37,878 nt of DNA, taken from a virus (taxonomy: Duplodnaviria > Heunggongvirae > Uroviricota > Caudoviricetes). Position 1 is the stretch's first letter, and the number at the start of each line of letters is the position of its first letter. Below the pieces are notes generated by a model that worked only from the letters and a program-made list of their open reading frames with translations, did no database searches and was not told the origin of the DNA. Below, piece after piece: positions 278 through 36,382 of the stretch. Position numbers and translations under genes: made by a program. The stretch lies in IMG/VR virus record IMGVR_UViG_2654587996_000002, one strand, 5' to 3'.

Positions 278-2368
278 ATGTGGGTAACAGCAAAAGAATG
301 TGTTGGTCTTCCTGATTTACCAATGATGGAACATAACATTCGCCATCGACTCACAAAAGCAGCTGCGGGAAATGCAGCCATGTTACGCAAACGTAAGGGG
401 ACAAAAGCAATCGAATTTAATATCGATTGTTTGCCTTCTGGCGCACAACAAGTATTGCGTGAACGTTATGCCCTGCAACTGATGACGCAAAAAGCCGATG
501 AATCACCGGCTCCGGTGGTGACAAAGGCCAGACGCTCACCTGCCGTGGTTGATGCGGTGGAGGCATATCGCGGATCACCCCAACTGATGGTCGAACGCCT
601 CAATGCCCTGACTGAAAACCAACGTAAAGTGGCAGAGGCACGAATAGCGATCGTCAGCGAGGCGCTGAAAATCGCGCAACAACCCGGCTTTAGTTGCGCT
701 AAGGCTATCCGGTTCCTCGTTAACAGCCTGGCACGATCACAACTGGACGAACGCATTGTGGCAATGGTTGAAACGGCGAACGCCAAAAAGGGAAACAGCC
801 GCGTGTTGAGTGAAATAACGCTGAAACGCTGGATTGCGGCCTTTAACAAGGCACAGAACGCCGCTGAACGCCTGCTTTTACTGGCACCGGGTAAACGCCA
901 GGAAATAAAAGCCGAAGATATTAGCTGGTTGCCCGAGTTTCTGGCGCAGTATCGCCAGTCAAACGGCCGACCAATGACCGAGGCTTACGAGGATTTTGTT
1001 GCTGAATGGCAGCACCGGCACGCTGATGAGCCTTATATGCTCGATATCATGCCCTCTTATGACACCATTCGCCGCGCGATGAAGAAACTGCCGGAAGTGG
1101 TGAAACAAAAAGGCCGGGTGACCGGCAGTGAATACCGCCAGCTTGAGGGATTCACGCGCCGCGACTGGTCAAAAATGCCGGTGAATTATGTCTGGATTGG
1201 TGACGGTCACGGCATGAAGCTGAAATGCGCGCACCCGGTTCACGGGCGGCCATTCGCACCGGAAGTGACCTTTGTTATCGATGGTGGCACGCGCTTTGTG
1301 GTGGGCTGGAGCCTTGACCTGGCTGAAAATGTTTTCGCCGTAGCCGGTGCCATACAGCACGGCATTCGCCATCACGGCAAACCGTTTCTGTATTACTCGG
1401 ATAATGGCTCCGGGGAAACCGCCGACATCCTGGATAAGGAGATTGTGGGGATCCTGCCACGACTGGGGATTAATCACCCGACAGGGATTGCCGGTAACCC
1501 GCAGGGACGGGGCATTATCGAACGGCTTAACCGCACATTACCGATGCGCATAGCCCGTAAATACCGCACCTATTTCGGGAAAGGTGCAGATCGCGAGACG
1601 TTACGTAAAACCAACCGCGATTTACGCTCGGCATTCACTGCCCTGCAACAGGGCAAGCGGCTGAACGCCCGGCAGCAGTCAGCGATGCGTGATTTACCGT
1701 CCTGGTCTGAACTGATTGATGCCATTCGTGACGGCGTTGAGTGGTACAACAGCCGGCCGCACGATGAATTACCCATGAAGCCGAACGGCAAACATTACAG
1801 CCCGGCGGAGTTCAGAAAAAAACGCCTGGCGGAAGAGGACACGGAAATTGAATGGCTGTCCGATGTTGAACTGCGGGACATGTTCCGGCCGATGGTGGAA
1901 CGCCCTGTAAGACGCTGTGAAATACGCTGGCTGAATAATATTTACTACGCGCCCGAGCTGCGTGATGAACATGGCCGCAAAGTGCTTATCAGCTATGACA
2001 TTCATGATGCCGAACGAATTACCGTGCGTCGCCCGGATGGCAGCGTGATTTGCGAGGCGGTATGGGACGGCAATAAACGCGAAGCCTTCCCGGTCAGCGC
2101 AGAATACTACAAACAGCAGCAGCGCCTTAAAGGTATGCGTAAACGCGCAGAGGAAAAAATCCGTGATGCCGAGGATGAGGTTGTCAACGTGCTGGAGCAC
2201 AAGCCACAGGAGCCATGGCTGGAAAATATATACCGCCCTGTGGGTAATACAGTGACCGTTCAGCAACCGGTCGCTGAGGATGAACCTGATGAAGAATACG
2301 AGCGTAATTTCCAGCGGGGATTGCAGCTGCTTGAAGCGAAATTAAAAGAAAATGACCCTCTGGCCTGA
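278..2368 (+). CDS. Mu-type DDE transposase A
   Basis: 696 aa; N-terminus MWVTAKECVGLPDLP resembles Mu A (ELWVSPKECANLPGLP); size and position after ner match Mu A. Confidence 0.9.
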   Translation: MWVTAKECVGLPDLPMMEHNIRHRLTKAAAGNAAMLRKRKGTKAIEFNIDCLPSGAQQVLRERYALQLMTQKADESPAPVVTKARRSPAVVDAVEAYRGSPQLMVERLNALTENQRKVAEARIAIVSEALKIAQQPGFSCAKAIRFLVNSLARSQLDERIVAMVETANAKKGNSRVLSEITLKRWIAAFNKAQNAAERLLLLAPGKRQEIKAEDISWLPEFLAQYRQSNGRPMTEAYEDFVAEWQHRHADEPYMLDIMPSYDTIRRAMKKLPEVVKQKGRVTGSEYRQLEGFTRRDWSKMPVNYVWIGDGHGMKLKCAHPVHGRPFAPEVTFVIDGGTRFVVGWSLDLAENVFAVAGAIQHGIRHHGKPFLYYSDNGSGETADILDKEIVGILPRLGINHPTGIAGNPQGRGIIERLNRTLPMRIARKYRTYFGKGADRETLRKTNRDLRSAFTALQQGKRLNARQQSAMRDLPSWSELIDAIRDGVEWYNSRPHDELPMKPNGKHYSPAEFRKKRLAEEDTEIEWLSDVELRDMFRPMVERPVRRCEIRWLNNIYYAPELRDEHGRKVLISYDIHDAERITVRRPDGSVICEAVWDGNKREAFPVSAEYYKQQQRLKGMRKRAEEKIRDAEDEVVNVLEHKPQEPWLENIYRPVGNTVTVQQPVAEDEPDEEYERNFQRGLQLLEAKLKENDPLA

Positions 2369-2443: not shown

Positions 2444-3376
2444 ATGACCGATATAAACGATGTAATCAAGACCATTGATGAACTTATTGATGGCGGCGTA
2501 CTGACGCAGTATGCCATCGCCAGAGAGGCGGGAATTTCCGACGGCACATTATCGGCTTTCCGTAAGGGAAAATATAAAGGTGATAACGCTGCTGTGGCTG
2601 CTTCCCTGCGTTCCTGGTATGAGAACTGGAATAAACAAAGCGCACTGCCGGAACCGCCGCAGTTTGTGGAAACGCAGACAGTCCAGGAGCTGCGCGCGCT
2701 GTTTCAGGCGGTTCGCCTGATGGGCTGTATTAACGTCATTGTGGGCGTACCGGGTGTGGGTAAAACGGCCACGGCCCGCAATTACTGTCAGGAGCAACCG
2801 AACACCTGGATGATCACCCTGTCGCCCGCGCATTCCAGCGTCACGGAGTGTATGCTGGAGCTGGCAGAGGAACTGGGGATTGATTACACCCGCGCGAACA
2901 AGGGGGCGTTATCCCGCGCCATCCGCCGTCGCCTGATGGGAACGCGTGGACTGGTGATTGTTGATGAGGCGGATCATCTTGGTATTGACGGTCTGGAACA
3001 ACTGCGTGCAATCCAGGACGCCACGGGGATCGGGATGGTGCTTATTGGTAACCCGCGCGGACTGTTTAAGGGTGGACGCCGCACCGTTGATGATTTATCG
3101 CGCCTGTTCAGCCGTCTTGCCCGTACAAAACAACTTCGCAAGGCCAAAAAGGCGGATGTGCTGGCTATTGCCAGGGCATGGGGGATTAGTGGTGAGGCCG
3201 AGCTGGCTGTCATGCAGGCTATCGCTGAAAAGCCGGGAGCCTTACGCGTTCTGACACATACGCTTAACCAGGCGTGGATCACCGCCAGCGGTGAAGGTGC
3301 CGCGCTGACAGAAAAACATATTAATGCGGCCTTTAAAGAGGTTTATACCAACCCTGAATTACTCTCACAGGTGTGA
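2444..3376 (+). CDS. Mu B-like ATP-dependent target DNA activator (AAA+)
   Basis: 310 aa with Walker A GVPGVGKT and Walker B-like LVIVDEAD; N-terminal HTH-like region; immediately downstream of A. Confidence 0.88.
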   Translation: MTDINDVIKTIDELIDGGVLTQYAIAREAGISDGTLSAFRKGKYKGDNAAVAASLRSWYENWNKQSALPEPPQFVETQTVQELRALFQAVRLMGCINVIVGVPGVGKTATARNYCQEQPNTWMITLSPAHSSVTECMLELAEELGIDYTRANKGALSRAIRRRLMGTRGLVIVDEADHLGIDGLEQLRAIQDATGIGMVLIGNPRGLFKGGRRTVDDLSRLFSRLARTKQLRKAKKADVLAIARAWGISGEAELAVMQAIAEKPGALRVLTHTLNQAWITASGEGAALTEKHINAAFKEVYTNPELLSQV

Positions 3377-25342: not shown

Positions 25343-26687
25343 CACGCCGGGGCGTGGCTCCTTTCGTGGCGTACCGTTCCTGGTTTATCAGGAGCAGCGG
25401 GAACGGGGCGGACGTAACATTGTGCGCCGTGAATACCCACTGCGTGAAAGCGGCGGTGCGGATGATCTGGGGCCAAAACTCCCGGAGTTCACATTCACGG
25501 TTCTGGTGACCGGAGACGATCTTCAGACACAGCGAAGCCGCCTGCGTGATGCGCTGCGTGCACCCGGTGCCGGTGAACTGATGCACCCGGATTACGGCAC
25601 GTTAAACGTGCTGATAAACAGCTTTGAAAGCCGTTATAACGCCAGCGAGCAGGGAACGGTTGAGTTCACGATCAACGTGATCCCCGCCAGTGACGATACC
25701 GCCCCTTCGGTGGCAGAAGATACGGCAGCTGCGCTGGAGCAGAAAAGCGGCTCAGCAATGAATCAGCTGTTTAACACGCTTTCAGACGGCTGGACGGTGA
25801 TTTCAGACGGTCTGCATGATGTACAGGCCATGACCGACACCATCAGCGATAAGATTGATGCACTGGAGAATGCCGTTTCGGGGATGGGGATTGTGCAGGA
25901 TATCAGTGCCTTTACGGCCAGTTTTACTGCCCTGAAAGGCAATGCCGCCGCCCTGATTAATGCGCCCCGTCGCATGGCTGAATCGCTGGCCGGAATGTTT
26001 GCCGTGCTGACCGGGCTGCCCGGCGATCCTTCCCTGTCTCTGACCGGAAAAGCCGGAACGCCGTCCGGCAGCCTGACCACAAACCGTGACAGCATGGCAG
26101 AGCAGGCCATGCCGCAGCTGTACCGCACACTTTCCTCCCTGCGTTACACCCTCAGCGAACAGGATGATCCACAGCGCCTGATTGGCCTGACGCCTGCGGC
26201 ACAGAAAAATATCCGTCTGCTGCGGAGCGTGATGCAGAGTGCAACCCTGGTGTCGCAGGCACAGACGGTCGGAAAACTGCTGGATCAGGTCATCCGGCAG
26301 AATACGACGCACGTTCAGGATACTGACCGTTCGGGCGGACTGGCATGGCTGGAAAGTTCTGCTGATGTGCAGCGTATCAACCGGGATTTGAGCGATGCCA
26401 TGGAACAACAGGTGCTGGATCTGTCCGCACAGGGCTATACCGGGACTGCCCTTGCATTACGTGATGCAGGGCTTGCGCTGACAGAAGATTTAACCACACG
26501 GAGCGTGCATCTTCCCGGTGCTTTTCAGGTCATGGTTCGCACCACCGAACCGGCACTGGTCACGCTGTACCGTGCCACCGGCAACAGCAGTCGCTGGCAG
26601 TATTTTGTCCGCAGAAACAATATCTCCGATCCGGTTTTTGTTCCGGGTGGCCGCAGCGTGGAGGTGATCAGTGAGCAGCAGGATTGA
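25329..26687 (+). CDS. Mu P-like protein (DNA circularisation protein family)
   Basis: 452 aa following tape measure with overlapping start; conserved Mu order. Confidence 0.7.
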   Translation: MASTDTPGRGSFRGVPFLVYQEQRERGGRNIVRREYPLRESGGADDLGPKLPEFTFTVLVTGDDLQTQRSRLRDALRAPGAGELMHPDYGTLNVLINSFESRYNASEQGTVEFTINVIPASDDTAPSVAEDTAAALEQKSGSAMNQLFNTLSDGWTVISDGLHDVQAMTDTISDKIDALENAVSGMGIVQDISAFTASFTALKGNAAALINAPRRMAESLAGMFAVLTGLPGDPSLSLTGKAGTPSGSLTTNRDSMAEQAMPQLYRTLSSLRYTLSEQDDPQRLIGLTPAAQKNIRLLRSVMQSATLVSQAQTVGKLLDQVIRQNTTHVQDTDRSGGLAWLESSADVQRINRDLSDAMEQQVLDLSAQGYTGTALALRDAGLALTEDLTTRSVHLPGAFQVMVRTTEPALVTLYRATGNSSRWQYFVRRNNISDPVFVPGGRSVEVISEQQD

Positions 26688-29914: not shown

Positions 29915-30465
29915 CCCTGACCCCGCATCAGCGCGCCCTGTTGCAGTTACTGCCTGACGGGCTGGCATGGGACAAGCGTCCGTCATCCGTACTGGCATCG
30001 TTATGCCTGGGCCTCAGCCATTCTACAGCGCGTGTATCCTGGACGGGTAAACAGCTGCTTGCCGAGCGTTTCCCTGACACGTCGCGCCTGCTGCTGGAAG
30101 ACTGGGAGCGTTATCTCGGCCTTCCTGAATGTGATATGGCCGGAGCCACCATCACGGAGCGACAGCGTTATGCCGGAAATAAATACCGGATGAAGCCCTC
30201 GCTGAACCGTGAATTTTATATCCGGTTTGCGGCGGAGTTTGGTTATCAGATTGACATTCAGCCTTCACCGGATTCGCAGTGGGTCAGTATTGTCACGATT
30301 AACAGTGAAACCGGCTACCGGAATATGAATGTGCTGGATGATATTCTCACGCCGCTGCGTATTTATGAAGGCGGTGCGCTGGAATGTATTCTGAATCGTT
30401 ATAAGCCTGCATGGCAGACGTTTATTTACGTGTATGCAAACAGCCACGAAGAGGAGAATATTTAA
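29905..30465 (+). CDS. tail protein (Mu gp48-like)
   Basis: 186 aa between baseplate J-like and tail fibre. Confidence 0.6.
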
Positions 30466-31355
30466 TGTTTCATGTTGATAATAATTCCGGCGTGGCGAAT
30501 ATGCCTGCGCTGGCACCGGCGCAGAGTAATACCACCACCTGGTTTACCGAAGGTGACGGACAAAAAGGTATCAGCTGGATTGGTCAGGACTGGCTGAATA
30601 TTCTCCAGGCCGAACTGCTGAATATTCTGGCTGAAGCCAGTATTCAGCCGGATAAGGCGCAGTTAAACCAGCTTACGCTGTCCATTAAAGCCATTATCGC
30701 TGCGAATGCTTTTTCCCGGAAAAATAACCTGAAAGAAATTGCTGATGCCGGTGCGGAGGCTCAGCGTCTGGCCCGTGGTTATCTTGGTCTGGGGACGCTT
30801 GCCACAAAAAACAGTCTTGGTCCCGGTGACGTTAATGCCCTGGCGAAGGATCAGAATCTGGCCGACCTGGAGAATACGGGAACCGCCCGTAATAATCTGG
30901 ATGTTTACAGCAAAAGCGAGGGTGATAACCGTTACCTGCGCAGGGAGCAGAACGGCGCAGACATTCCGGATAAAGGGGCTTTTATCGATAACGTCGGTTT
31001 ACGGGAAACGGTAAACAGAGCCGCGAACGCACTGCCATCGAACGGAACGGCCGTTGCCGCGAACAGGCTGGCAAATGCCCACACAATTAATGGGGTTCCT
31101 TTTGACGGAACGCAGGATATAAACATCACTTCTGGTATGACTCTGCTGGATGGTGATGCCCGTTATGTGCAGAATGTGAGACTGGGTTCAGAAATGTCTG
31201 TATTAATGCCATTCGGGGGAAAAGTCGGTATAGGAGGATGTGTAATAACGGCGTTATCTATAGCGGGTGAAGTGGATAACAGTGGCGATTTTGCTTATTT
31301 TCGCCCACTACAGATATACATAAATGGCTCATGGATTACGGTATCTCAGTTATAA
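30465..31355 (+). CDS. tail fibre protein S (constant part plus currently expressed variable part Sv)
   Basis: GAGGAG RBS before ATG 30465; C-terminal ~115 codons lie inside the invertible segment and are paralogous to the oppositely oriented 31963-32328 ORF. Confidence 0.75.
30982..31007 (+). promoter_or_regulatory. gix-like recombination site (left boundary of invertible segment)
   Basis: TTATCGATAACG-TC-GGTTTACGGGAA; inner half-site identical to that of the right site in inverted orientation; resembles Mu gix / Salmonella hix sites. Confidence 0.7.
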
Positions 31356-31406
31356 ATAGGCGGTAAATAATATATTTTAAAACAGATTTATTTCCAGGAG
31401 GATTTT

Positions 31407-31928
31407 ATGGAACTAAAAAATATAACCCGTTATTATCCTGAAAATATGCCATATGGTAATAATGTTCAGTATTTTCAGAGTGAAGATGGTAAGGATTTCT
31501 ACGAGTCCCTGCCATTATTCACCAAAAAATATAAACTTTGCATAACACCTGACAGCGGCGTTATCTGCTCAATATCACAGGACGCCTCGGCGCTGTATCC
31601 TGTGGGTTTTTCCGTGGTTGAGAGCGACGAACTCCCTGAAGGCACTGATATTTCAGGTAACTGGAAGTTTGATGATGGTGTCATCTCACCGCTTCCGGTT
31701 GACTACGACAAAAAAGCGAAAACAATGCATCAGTCATATCTTAATCAGGCATATGAAAAGATTAATGACTGGAGAACTGAGTTACAGCTGGGCACGATTA
31801 GTGATGAAAACAGAGCTGCGCTTACACGATGGATGGAATACATCAGTCAGGTGAAAAAAATGGAACTACCTGCGATTAAAAACAAAGCTGAATTTGACGA
31901 CATTAAATGGCCGGAAAAGCCTGAATAA
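31407..31928 (+). CDS. tail fibre assembly protein U
   Basis: 173 aa; AGGAGG RBS; directly downstream of tail fibre gene. Confidence 0.7.
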   Translation: MELKNITRYYPENMPYGNNVQYFQSEDGKDFYESLPLFTKKYKLCITPDSGVICSISQDASALYPVGFSVVESDELPEGTDISGNWKFDDGVISPLPVDYDKKAKTMHQSYLNQAYEKINDWRTELQLGTISDENRAALTRWMEYISQVKKMELPAIKNKAEFDDIKWPEKPE

Positions 31929-31932
31929 CGTA

Positions 31933-31953
31933 AAGGGTGCTTATCGCACCCTT
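31933..31953. terminator. bidirectional hairpin between convergent U and S'v
   Basis: AAGGGTGC-TTATC-GCACCCTT perfect 8-bp stem followed by TTTTCCTTT; sits between U stop (31928) and S'v stop (31963). Confidence 0.6.
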
Positions 31954-31962
31954 TTCCTTTAA

Positions 31963-32328
31963 TCAGACGGATGAAACTGTGCGCCAGCCATTACCGATAT
32001 ATATCTGCACCGGACGGTAATAAACGCCTCCGATATTATCGGCTGAACTTTTCCCGGTATCCTGCACGTTAATACCTGAAAGCATACAACCGGAAGGTGC
32101 GCCATAACTCCAGGACATTTCATTACCTCCGGGTGAATGGTAACTCTGGGCACCAAGCTGAACGTTGCTAACGTATTTGTTATCAGCAGTAGCTTCGGTC
32201 ATACCGGAGTTAATGTATATATCCTGCGTCCCGTCAAAGGGAACCCCATTAATATTTCTTGGGGTGGCGAGTTTATTCGAGGCAACGGCGGTGCCGTCCA
32301 ATGGCAGAGCATTCGCCGCCTTATTCAC
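31963..32328 (-). CDS. alternative tail fibre C-terminal segment S'v (silent in this orientation)
   Basis: Minus-strand ORF with no ATG of its own; frame continues through the right gix site. Protein is paralogous to Sv (AANALP..GTAVA.N.LA....[13 protein letters not shown]-terminal RP.QIYI..W.TVS). Confidence 0.7.
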   Translation of the reverse strand: MNKAANALPLDGTAVASNKLATPRNINGVPFDGTQDIYINSGMTEATADNKYVSNVQLGAQSYHSPGGNEMSWSYGAPSGCMLSGINVQDTGKSSADNIGGVYYRPVQIYIGNGWRTVSSV

Positions 32329-32331
32329 CGT

Positions 32332-32357
32332 TTCCCGTAAACCGAGGTTTTCAGGAA
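32332..32357 (-). promoter_or_regulatory. gix-like recombination site (right boundary of invertible segment)
   Basis: TTCCCGTAAACC-GA-GGTTTTCAGGAA, a near-palindromic 26-bp site close to the Mu gix / hix pattern. Confidence 0.75.
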
Positions 32358-32422
32358 AGCCCCTGTTCTCCCCGTTTTATTCATCATGCGACAATTCCGG
32401 CTTTTTATAATAAGGAGATCGT

Positions 32423-32995
32423 ATGCTGATTGGGTATATCAGGGTGTCAACAAATGACCAGAATACGGCGCTACAGAGAAATGCGCTGGAATGTGCAGGA
32501 TGTGAGCTGTTTTTCGAAGACAGAATAAGCGGTAAGACAAGGGAACGTCCCGGCCTTAAACGCGCATTAAAGCGACTCCGGCCAGGGGATACCCTGCTGG
32601 TCTGGAAACTGGATCGTCTTGGACGTAGTATGCAGCACCTTGTCCTTTTAACAGAAGAACTCCGGCAGCGCGGCGTTAACTTCCGCAGCATTACGGACAA
32701 TATTGATACATCCACTCCCATGGGACGTTTCTTTTTCCATATAATGGGCGCACTGGCGGAAATGGAGCGGGAACTCATTATTGAACGTACACGCGCGGGT
32801 CTTGCTGCTGCCCGTGCTCAGGGGCGTCATGGCGGCAGACCTCAGAAACTGACAGGGAAAGAGCGGGAGCAAATCGCCCGTTTGCTGGCTAATGGCGAGT
32901 CCCGTAAACAAATCGCACTGATATTTGATATTGGCCTGTCCACCCTTTATCGTTATTTTCCTGCCTCACCGGCTCCGTCACCAAAAGTACCGTGA
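32423..32995 (+). CDS. gin: Gin-family serine DNA invertase
   Basis: MLIGYIRVSTNDQNTALQRNAL...GDTLLVWKLDRLGRSM...MGRFFFHIMGALAEMERELIIERT closely matches recalled Mu Gin / Hin; AGGAG RBS. Confidence 0.92.
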   Translation: MLIGYIRVSTNDQNTALQRNALECAGCELFFEDRISGKTRERPGLKRALKRLRPGDTLLVWKLDRLGRSMQHLVLLTEELRQRGVNFRSITDNIDTSTPMGRFFFHIMGALAEMERELIIERTRAGLAAARAQGRHGGRPQKLTGKEREQIARLLANGESRKQIALIFDIGLSTLYRYFPASPAPSPKVP

Positions 32996-33080: not shown

Positions 33081-35129
33081 ATGTCAGACTCCCAGTGGAA
33101 AATGCTCTCCGCCATGCCCGGAGAGTTTTCAGTCAAGGTTGCCGGTGGCACGGTGGCATTTATTGAAAGTCCTTTCAGGCCTTCGGGTAATAAAGGGGGG
33201 ATCACCTTCGCAGACTGCGTGATCCGCTTCAGCACGAAAGAGCCATTATGGGTAATGCCGGTATCCGGCAATCCCAGCGCAGAAATCACCAGTTCAGGTG
33301 TGACCGGCATTATTCCGATCACATCTGACGTGGCCGGAACACTCACGCCTTCTGACTGGAATGCACCGGATAACGCCGGACCGTCTGGCGGTACAAATGG
33401 CAGCAGTACAGAGCCGGAGTATTACTATGTGCTTCCACTGGCCGGGCAGTCCAACGGGATGGCCTACGGTGAAGGGCTTCCGCTACCGGCTTCATTCGAC
33501 CGCCCTGAACCGCGCATTAAGCAACTGGCACGTCGCAGCACGGTAACGCCCGATGGTACGTCGTGCACATATAACGATATCATTCCCGCAGACCACTGCC
33601 TGCATGATGTGCAGGACATGAGCGGGATAAACCACCCGAAAGCTGACCTGAGTAAAGGGCAGTATGGTTGTGTCGGCCAGGGGCTGCATATTGCCAAAAA
33701 ACTGCTGCCTTATATTCCGCAGAATGCCGGGATACTTCTGGTTCCCTGCTGTCGTGGTGCTTCGGCATTCACCACCGGTGATGACGGCTCATTCAGTGAG
33801 GCCAGCGGTGCTTCCGCTGATTCTTCACGCTGGGGAGCCGGTAAACCCCTGTATCATGACCTGGTAAGCCGTACCAGAGCGGCGCTGGCGAAGAACCCGA
33901 AAAACAAACTTCTGGCAGTGGTCTGGATGCAGGGAGAAGCAGACCTTGCATCGGGAAGTCAGCAGCATAATGGTTTATTCACAGCCATGGTTCAGCAGTT
34001 CAGAACCGACCTGTCTCCACTTGCAGCGCAGTGCGTGAGTGGAAATGCTGCCACGGTGCCGTGGATTTGTGGTGACACCACGTATTACTGGAAAAACACG
34101 TATGCCACGCAGTATGAAACAGTCTATGGAGCATATAAAAATCTGACCGCACAGAATATTTTCTTTGTGCCGTTCCTGACGGATGAGAATGGACAGAACA
34201 CGCCAACGAATGCTCCGGTGGAAGACCCGGATATTGTGGCTGTCGGGTATTACGGTGCGGCATCCCGTACCCAGGGCAGTTTTGTCTCCACACAGCGTGA
34301 CAGCCATTTCAGCTCATGGGCACGCAGGGGCATCATTTCTGACCGTCTGGCCTCAGCCATTCTGCTCCATGCGGGACGCACGGCTGAAGTTATGGGCGGA
34401 CAGGCCGTGCCGCCGGATGAAAAACCATCCCCTGACACGCCATCAACGCCGTCAACGGACGGGAAATCAATGACGACGCTGTTTTCTTACCGCGCATCGG
34501 AGTCAGGCGGAGCACTGACGCCACAGGGCTGGGGGGCGGAAGGCGGTAGTGCTGCTGTTGTGGATGATGTCGGTGCCAGCGGGGGCAAGGCGCTGAAGCT
34601 GACAAAACAGACCGGAAAGTCATGGTTTATGCAGCATGATGCCGGTAATGGTGCCGACCTGCTGGAAAAAGGTGGCCTTGTCAGCTGTCGTTTTAAACTT
34701 GATGGCGCGCTTACGGCTAATCAGTACGCACTGGCGCTGTACTGGCCGGTTTCTTCGCTTCCTCAGGGCGTCACACTGGAAGGTAATGCCGGTCATAACC
34801 TGCTGGCATCGTTTTACGTTCAGAGCGATGCCACAGACCTTATCGTGATGTACCACAAGGGTAATCCAGACCAGAACACGAAGCTGGGTTCATTCGGTGC
34901 ATTTAATAACGAGTGGCATACGCTGGCATTCCGTTTTGCCGGTAATAACAGCATTCAGGTGACGCCGGTGATTGATGGTAAGAACGGGGAACCGTTCATG
35001 CTGTCTCAGTCACCTGTCGGTTCTTTTGCGGCAGACAAGTTACGCCTGACCGATATCACCAGTAATGCAACGTATCCGGTACTGATTGACAGCATTTTGG
35101 TGGAAGTGAATAACCCGTCAGCAGGATAA
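33081..35129 (+). CDS. large accessory protein: SASA-like carbohydrate O-acetylesterase core plus C-terminal lectin/LamG-like domain
   Basis: 682 aa; LPLAGQSNGMAYGEG (GQSN motif) and VVWMQGEADLASG (QGE motif) as in sialate O-acetylesterase-like esterases; Gly/Ser/Thr/Pro linkers; C-terminal ~200 aa resembles concanavalin/LamG-type carbohydrate-binding folds. Confidence 0.6.
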   Translation: MSDSQWKMLSAMPGEFSVKVAGGTVAFIESPFRPSGNKGGITFADCVIRFSTKEPLWVMPVSGNPSAEITSSGVTGIIPITSDVAGTLTPSDWNAPDNAGPSGGTNGSSTEPEYYYVLPLAGQSNGMAYGEGLPLPASFDRPEPRIKQLARRSTVTPDGTSCTYNDIIPADHCLHDVQDMSGINHPKADLSKGQYGCVGQGLHIAKKLLPYIPQNAGILLVPCCRGASAFTTGDDGSFSEASGASADSSRWGAGKPLYHDLVSRTRAALAKNPKNKLLAVVWMQGEADLASGSQQHNGLFTAMVQQFRTDLSPLAAQCVSGNAATVPWICGDTTYYWKNTYATQYETVYGAYKNLTAQNIFFVPFLTDENGQNTPTNAPVEDPDIVAVGYYGAASRTQGSFVSTQRDSHFSSWARRGIISDRLASAILLHAGRTAEVMGGQAVPPDEKPSPDTPSTPSTDGKSMTTLFSYRASESGGALTPQGWGAEGGSAAVVDDVGASGGKALKLTKQTGKSWFMQHDAGNGADLLEKGGLVSCRFKLDGALTANQYALALYWPVSSLPQGVTLEGNAGHNLLASFYVQSDATDLIVMYHKGNPDQNTKLGSFGAFNNEWHTLAFRFAGNNSIQVTPVIDGKNGEPFMLSQSPVGSFAADKLRLTDITSNATYPVLIDSILVEVNNPSAG

Positions 35130-36196: not shown

Positions 36197-36382
36197 ATGT
36201 ATCGAAACATACGGTGCCGACACTGCAATAAGCTACTGGCACGGGCCAGTTTCAGCTATCTGGAAGTAAAATGTCCGCGCTGCAAAACCCTCAATCAAAT
36301 CACATCTCAGAGCGCCACAGAGCACCCCACATACACAAGGAAATCCTGCCGTGGGGAACAAGAAACATTACTTTCAGTCTGA
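36197..36382 (+). CDS. com: Com-like zinc-finger translational activator
   Basis: MYRNIRCRHCNKLLARASFSYLEVKCPRCKTLNQ has the CxxC...CxxC arrangement and N-terminal similarity to Mu Com (recalled MKSIRCKNCNKLL...RCPRCK); AGGAGG RBS; 3' end overlaps start of the downstream modification gene as com does with mom. Confidence 0.8.
   Translation: MYRNIRCRHCNKLLARASFSYLEVKCPRCKTLNQITSQSATEHPTYTRKSCRGEQETLLSV

Follow-up and report, generated by a model that had tools for sequence, protein, structure and literature searches.

The DNA analyzed here, referred to throughout as the window, is the whole 37,878-nucleotide (37.9-kb) stretch of the IMG/VR virus record IMGVR_UViG_2654587996_000002, which holds most of a Mu-type prophage. 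The end of its tail operon is the site of a tail fiber gene (S), a gene for a tail fiber assembly (Tfa) chaperone (U), an inverted second 3′ end of the fiber gene (S′v) and a serine DNA invertase gene (gin). Two gix sites in inverted orientation enclose S′v, U and the variable end of S in a segment of 1.35 kb that adjoins gin, and this three-gene layout of the Sp18-like family is a functional host-range switch of the Gin/gix type. Its features are as follows.

30465–31355, plus strand: S, tail fiber, 296 aa
30465–30981, plus strand: Sc, the constant part of S, outside the invertible segment
30968–31141: left arm of the inverted repeat, encoding an adaptor common to both variable ends (AANALPS.GTAVA..L.....)
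30982–31007, minus strand: gixL, TTCCCGTAAACCGACGTTATCGATAA as reverse complement, core TC/GA at 30994–30995
30995–31355, plus strand: Sv cassette, tip type A, adjoining U and presently fused to Sc
31407–31928, plus strand: U, the single Tfa chaperone, 173 aa, with an AGGAGG ribosome-binding site
31921–31966, both strands: hairpin between the convergent stops of U and S′v
31963 to ~32344, minus strand: S′v cassette, tip type X, promoterless and convergent with U
32198–32371: right arm of the inverted repeat
32332–32357, plus strand: gixR, TTCCCGTAAACCGAGGTTTTCAGGAA, core GA at 32344–32345
32423–32995, plus strand: gin, serine DNA invertase with Resolvase and HTH_7 domains

The start codon of S was set by homology to Mu S (whose sequence begins MFYIDN), and Sc is 95–99% identical in most related E. 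coli loci. S′v has no credible start codon of its own.

The gix sites and inversion of the segment

The two gix sites have the same central dinucleotide, GA (TC on the other strand), and both are near-identical to the Mu gix sites read from NC_000929, the GA core included. When the 37.9-kb window was searched with the 16-nt gix core, allowing up to three mismatches, gixL and gixR were the only two matches, against a chance expectation of 0.22. The inverted repeats reach approximately 160 bp inward of each gix site, and I1/I2 complementarity is 75% and 88%. Gin matches the Pfam families Resolvase (E = 2e-51) and HTH_7 (E = 6e-14). Over 184 aa its identity with Mu Gin is 74%. In Mu, Kahmann et al. 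are said to have placed a Fis-dependent recombinational enhancer in the 5′ part of gin in 1985; the stretch from gixR to the 5′ end of gin in the window, which spans the region of the Mu enhancer, is alignable with Mu at a mean column identity of 83%. An earlier sequence-only reading of the window, made without database searches, had described gix-like sites around a segment of about 1.35 kb beside gin that holds Sv, U and an inverted, promoterless S′v able to fuse in frame with the constant part of S, and each of these points was confirmed. Specifically, in-silico inversion of 30994–32345 yields an uninterrupted S(−) of 303 aa in which S′v is in frame with Sc, and this product equals S(+), the fiber of the present orientation, through residue 184 and diverges from residue 185.

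Inversion has also taken place in nature. The near-clonal E. coli strains FORC_069 (L001) and NCCP 13983 (L002), whose genomes are almost equal in size, have the same architecture as the window and gix sites identical to its own, the gixL 26-mer being identical in L001–L004. Over 5618 bp, L001 and L002 differ solely between the gix sites, and inversion of L001 in silico at the gix cores renders it 100% identical to L002; a segment almost identical to that of the window, with identical gix sites, has thus inverted naturally. Our census of relatives combined 53 loci from IMG/VR and five annotated ones from E. coli. In the 22 of these that contain gin and the two cassettes, U points the same way as S in 9 cases and the opposite way in 13. 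Moreover, roughly twelve IMG/VR contigs, metagenome- or isolate-derived, stop at or near a gix site or an inverted-repeat arm, which fits assembly breaks from populations of mixed orientation. Ends near gixL, gixR or the repeat arms were seen in L016, L025, L027, L031, L032, L035, L037, L039, L040 and L044, and also in L015.

In the mechanism that we propose, Gin would recombine the two gix sites and flip the 1.35 kb between them, and a late promoter outside the segment would drive Sc, joined to one of two C-terminal cassettes of approximately 115 aa each. Each cassette comprises the common adaptor (~45 aa) and a tip domain (~70 aa) that has homologs in the Mu S and S′ tips.

A single chaperone gene

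The product of U belongs to the Pfam family Caudo_TAP (PF02413; E = 7e-19, 68.7 bits versus a cut-off of 22.1) and shows homology to Mu U of the 5YVQ fiber–chaperone complex (5YVQ_B, E = 3e-15). The pairing of U with U′ that marks the Mu G and P1 C layouts was not found, in agreement with the sequence-only reading, as ten diverse Tfa queries (including Mu U and Mu U′) run with tblastn against the 37.9-kb window at E ≤ 10 returned U only. On the minus strand across 31356–31962, where that reading had suggested a search for a cryptic chaperone, the longest open reading frame is 61 aa and has no Pfam match. Together with the tblastn result, this rules out a cryptic second chaperone. The gap between the stop codons of U and S′v is 34 nt, filled by the hairpin.

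The lone chaperone is not peculiar to the window. Exactly one tfa was present in all 31 related loci with a full-length U, and among approximately 70 annotated rows of related E. coli loci none lists two tail fiber assembly proteins. A search of 5426 complete E. coli genomes turned up related loci in 236 (~4%), O157 among them, and the match of the O157:H7 loci to the window (~82% identity) places the latter in the Sp18 family of strain Sakai. The single-tfa layout is therefore the norm of the Sp18-like prophage family. Some members of the family are losing the switch: the locus of E. coli AST46 (L003) has a frameshifted gin and truncated cassettes, and L014 and L055 have one truncated cassette each.

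In terms of variation within the chaperone, 18 U alleles have a mean pairwise identity of 83% in the N-terminal half (56 of 95 positions invariant) and 69% in the C-terminal half (24 of 78). For Mu Tfa, the N-terminal domain has been described as binding the distal fiber and staying on the virion, and the conserved C-terminal domain as driving trimerization, according to PMC9608196, which summarizes North et al. 2019. The tips found with the 18 alleles are of four types in one position and of two in the second. We considered whether U alleles covary with tip type and rejected the idea, as the combinations are mosaic with no clean pairing.

The two fiber tips

Residues 1–198 of S align with Mu S 1–191 (PDB 5YVQ_A, domain E ~5e-45) and residues 229–294 with the Mu S tip at 435–502, such that S is essentially Mu S minus its middle. 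The S′v tip is likewise homologous to the Mu S tip, with a better match to the phiTE short tail fiber tip (9CUY_c, E = 3e-14); in the phiTE paper for 9CUY the fiber tip was not modeled. Both tips of the window end in the motif RP.QIYI...W.TVS. The sequence-only reading had noticed this common extreme C-terminus and offered it as a possible basis for a shared chaperone. The motif itself is present, with the spacing corrected to three residues before the W, whereas the argument drawn from it was rejected, because Mu S and Mu S′ also carry the motif and yet have separate chaperones. The motif is a general hallmark of the Mu-type tip fold.

Across the family, four types (A–D) can be told apart among the tips that lie upstream of U in the same orientation; the window has A, and D is similar to the Mu S tip. 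Among the tips convergent with U there are two types, namely X (119 aa), as in the window, and Y (109 aa). A–D, X and Y are all variants of one fold. Selection acts on both tips as well as on U. Specifically, the convergent S′v-type tips have a ratio of nonsynonymous to synonymous substitution (dN/dS) of 0.04–0.15 at dS ~0.8–1.8 among relatives, and with so low a ratio these tips must be used by infectious phage, so that a silent or useless cassette is excluded.

Transcription of U and the hairpin

With respect to transcription, a late-promoter-like box, T(T/C)CCGCA(A/G)A (TCCGCAAA), followed approximately 20 nt later by a −10-like TTAxGCT or TATTCT, was deduced from the sequences that precede lys, I, P and Est, the gene after gin. 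This box is presumably the target of the phage's C-type late activator, and it lies at the following positions.

9056, plus strand: late-promoter-like box of lys
16985, plus strand: late-promoter-like box of I
26608–26660, plus strand: late-promoter-like box of P, GTCCGCAGAAAC..., at the position of Mu PP and outside the invertible segment
33010, plus strand: late-promoter-like box of Est

The box at 26608 is the presumed source of the S–U late transcript, and in the orientation of the window U would be co-transcribed with S. The Sv–U spacer is 51 nt long, with the strong AGGAGG ribosome-binding site and no sigma-70 match. In the flipped orientation, U would instead be read from a separate transcript starting on its own side. 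The hairpin 3′ of U, a 9-bp G+C-rich stem, has a predicted energy of −18.9 kcal/mol on the plus strand (z −3.8), where it is followed by UUUUCCUUU, and −24.7 kcal/mol on the minus strand (z −6.1), and the equivalent hairpin in flipped loci was flagged as terminator-like. It is likely a two-way terminator that would end transcription arriving from either side. Given its location between the convergent stops, the late transcript should stop before the antisense U after inversion. The sequence-only reading had placed U antisense to late transcription in the flipped state; the strand assignment stands, and antisense read-through probably does not occur.

No conserved leftward promoter was found in the gixR-to-gin spacer. 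At 32425–32455 on the minus strand, the conserved first codons of gin (M-L-I-G-Y-I-R-V-S-T) read oppositely as TTGACA-16-CAGCAT, which points into the segment. This leftward element could drive Sv–U once the segment is inverted, or might simply result from coding constraint.

A lineage locked in the flipped state

Seven IMG/VR loci (L010, L011, L012, L019, L028, L033 and L038) lack gin, gixR and the U-proximal cassette. All seven have in common a deletion whose endpoints lie at the 3′ end of the U-proximal cassette and inside the 3′ end of gin, and this single junction indicates one lineage frozen in the flipped state. Gin-less loci are also found in the complete E. coli genomes S1-CAM-01-A, JE86-ST02 and JE86-ST05, and three partial matches to the type (M1, M3 and M18) are likewise without an annotated recombinase. 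The fiber gene of the locked lineage joins Sc to an X or Y tip; U, intact at 173 aa, is located on the strand opposite S and has a dN/dS of 0.13–0.14 between members. At the junction, A(C/T)GATA-17-TATAAT, with a perfect TATAAT hexamer, lies 123 nt upstream of U, and for two members its score is among the highest 0.2% of the null. That a lineage with the convergent-type end only still maintains U is the strongest argument that U acts on such tips.

A probable shared chaperone for two tips

We infer that U acts on both tips and that, in the flipped state, it has a transcript start of its own. The sharing of one U by the two homologous Mu-type tips, an option that the sequence-only reading had listed, seems to us probable, though with appreciable room for doubt, and it is favored by the selection on the tips and on U and by the retention of U in the locked-flipped lineage. 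Since both tips belong to one Mu-type tip family, one U could fold both. The two tips of the window are 41% identical to each other, akin to the 48% between the tips of Mu S and S′, whose chaperones U and U′ are 72% identical in their N-terminal halves and 40% in their C-terminal halves. Consistent with a shared U, its N-terminal half, which corresponds to the fiber-binding part of Mu Tfa (PMC9608196), is the better conserved one despite the varied tips.

Several observations weigh against this interpretation. No late-promoter box lies within 30982–32357 on either strand, and a sigma-70 consensus scan found no site upstream of U. A weight-matrix scan near U gave marginal candidates, namely TGGATA-17-TATTTT at 31273 inside Sv (p ~0.12) and the leftward TTGACA-16-CAGCAT at 32450; the other cassette types each have a marginal candidate 105–215 nt upstream of U (p ~0.04–0.13), all of which are hints rather than evidence because the A+T-rich cassettes bias the test. 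Tip types A–D and X/Y never swap position in 31 loci, a split that could mean that U is not needed to the same degree by both classes. Finally, the signal of selection on U in the locked lineage could derive in part from recombination with invertible relatives.

The positional split and the want of a credible promoter for U when flipped, as seen in the window's sublineage, are what would be expected if U served only the upstream Sv-type tip, A–D always being co-oriented with U and X/Y always convergent, so that X and Y tips fold without a dedicated chaperone and the flipped phase needs no U. We regard this as rather unlikely, as the gin-less lineage has lost the Sv-type cassette and nonetheless keeps an intact U under purifying selection with TATAAT upstream. 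In addition, a Citrobacter braakii prophage (L006) has an X-like tip with a tfa directly downstream, which indicates that this tip type is normally chaperoned, and the X and Y tips share homology with that of Mu S, for which a need for Tfa is established knowledge (PMC9608196).

The same separation of the flipped U from the late operon, with no promoter found, would also suit a flipped phase that makes no U at all and is either a fiber-defective OFF state or dependent on Tfa supplied in trans by other prophages. E. coli genomes often contain several tfa, and some of the matched genomes hold up to 6–8 related places. Even so, this scenario appears improbable, and with it the defective fibers that the sequence-only reading had envisaged for one orientation, given that the low dN/dS of S′v-type tips requires function and that sequenced genomes show the flipped state no less often than the other (13 versus 9). 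The locked-flipped lineage, moreover, persists as full-length prophage contigs with an intact U. Help from a lambdoid Tfa is not expected because the fiber-binding domain of Tfa is family-specific (PMC9608196). A decayed four-gene G segment, in which U′ was lost and the switch is dead, is very improbable: decaying relatives do exist (L003, L014 and L055), but the window retains intact copies of gin, the two gix sites, the two cassettes and U, the 34 nt between the U and S′v stops hold no U′ remnant, and this architecture, which is conserved in many genomes, has been shown to invert.

Building on the shared U, we tentatively suggest a broader possibility, which at present we would not expect to hold: the one Tfa may be a generalist for the Mu-type tip family that forms its own convergent transcription unit in either orientation. 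Equally doubtful is the corresponding proposal that the flipped-phase promoter lies off the late operon, for example inside the inverted Sv or leftward from the start of gin. If U were such a generalist, chaperone supply and the yield of functional fibers would differ between the phases, and the number of chaperone genes would track tip families rather than tips. Our observations suggest a rule of one chaperone per tip family and not per tip, to which Mu itself would be an exception.

In the textbook view of programmed host-range switching, each alternative fiber end is paired with its own chaperone. The present family is a natural and widespread layout in which two diverged tips have one chaperone gene between them, and this gene is off the late operon in one phase. 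If one Tfa does fold several tips, the receptor-binding tips of phages and tailocins could be swapped without swapping the chaperone, and the locus would offer a compact system for mapping Tfa recognition. The gain is incremental, as the mechanism of the switch is classical.

Prophage context

At the start of the window lie ner, A and B, followed by head and tail and then baseplate genes. The right-hand flank is at least 95% identical to thousands of E. coli chromosomes, which identifies the host as E. coli. Genes outside the fiber locus include the following.

1–267: ner, at the start of the window
278–2368: A
2444–3376: B
33081–35129, plus strand: 682-aa protein with SASA (sialate O-acetylesterase) and DUF6645 domains, directly after gin
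36351–37403, plus strand: C-5 cytosine DNA methyltransferase (Pfam DNA_methylase)

The SASA/DUF6645 gene sits where Mu has com/mom, with a late-promoter-like box upstream. Its product is conserved yet very variable across the family (50–97% identity) and may be a second host-interaction or receptor-modifying late protein. The methyltransferase is annotated beside a Com-family regulator in a near-identical E. coli record, and, close to the right end of the prophage (~37568), it appears to take the place of the modification module Mom of Mu.

Comparison with known systems

The window belongs to one family with Sp18, a Mu-like prophage of E. coli O157:H7 strain Sakai, and the relatives of Sp18; the O157 loci have the same order of a YmfQ-family gene, S, tfa, an inverted tail-protein fragment, a recombinase and a DUF6645 gene. 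The window differs from the O157 loci in its cassette alleles: it has tip A by U, its X-type tip is 82% identical and its U 60% identical to theirs. In the literature we found no discussion of a single-chaperone invertible segment and no comment on the lone chaperone of the Sp18 type.

With the Mu G segment the window has in common the Mu-type backbone (ner, A, B, ... baseplate, S, U, gin), a U homologous to Mu U, and the same logic of a promoter and constant part outside and variable 3′ ends inside the segment. The segment is 1.35 kb in the window versus 3 kb in Mu, and the fiber is ~297–303 aa versus 504 aa, the difference reflecting the lack of the central ~240 residues of Mu S. Whereas Mu has U and U′, the window has one chaperone gene and a hairpin at the place of U′, and gin is followed by an esterase/DUF6645 gene instead of com/mom.

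The P1 C segment (Cin), the e14 P segment (Pin) and the Mu-like prophage of enteropathogenic E. coli (EPEC) E2348/69 are also serine-invertase switches of the 3′ end of a fiber gene. Unlike the window, these have two convergent tfa, one per fiber end, with pin-type crossover sites; two convergent tfa genes have been described for e14 (PMC12529663), and we confirmed them in the segment of the EPEC E2348/69 prophage. Inversion in culture has been shown for e14 and the EPEC prophage (PMC4272514). The inverting "Mu prophage" locus of E2348/69 (PMC4272514) was considered as experimental evidence and rejected, as it is a different, four-gene, pin-type segment. Two distant loci with the same Sc, L041 and L042, have the classic S–U–U′–S′v layout, in which the two ends come from unrelated tip families, with one Tfa apiece.

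Carotovoricin Er (Ein), a tailocin rather than a phage, reportedly has a small invertible segment that swaps fiber C-termini and alters the killing range (Nguyen et al. 2001; cited in PMC13195805). The Erwinia phage ENT90 (L065, 1–2600) combines several tip cassettes with one tfa and a DNA invertase; unlike the window, it is P2-like and its tips are unrelated. The ENT90 cassettes have a (V/L)GLGEAAK junction in common, and one inverted cassette is annotated as "virion structural protein". Finally, the Citrobacter braakii ATCC 51113 locus (L006, 4812–7300), a small multi-inversion system, has, as in the window, more tips than chaperones, with three gix-like sites (~4812, 6846 and 7212), three Mu-type tips and one tfa, although its cassettes and Tfa subtype are different (229 aa, Caudo_TAP and DUF4376). 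This three-tip, one-tfa locus also suggests that the number of chaperones follows tip families.

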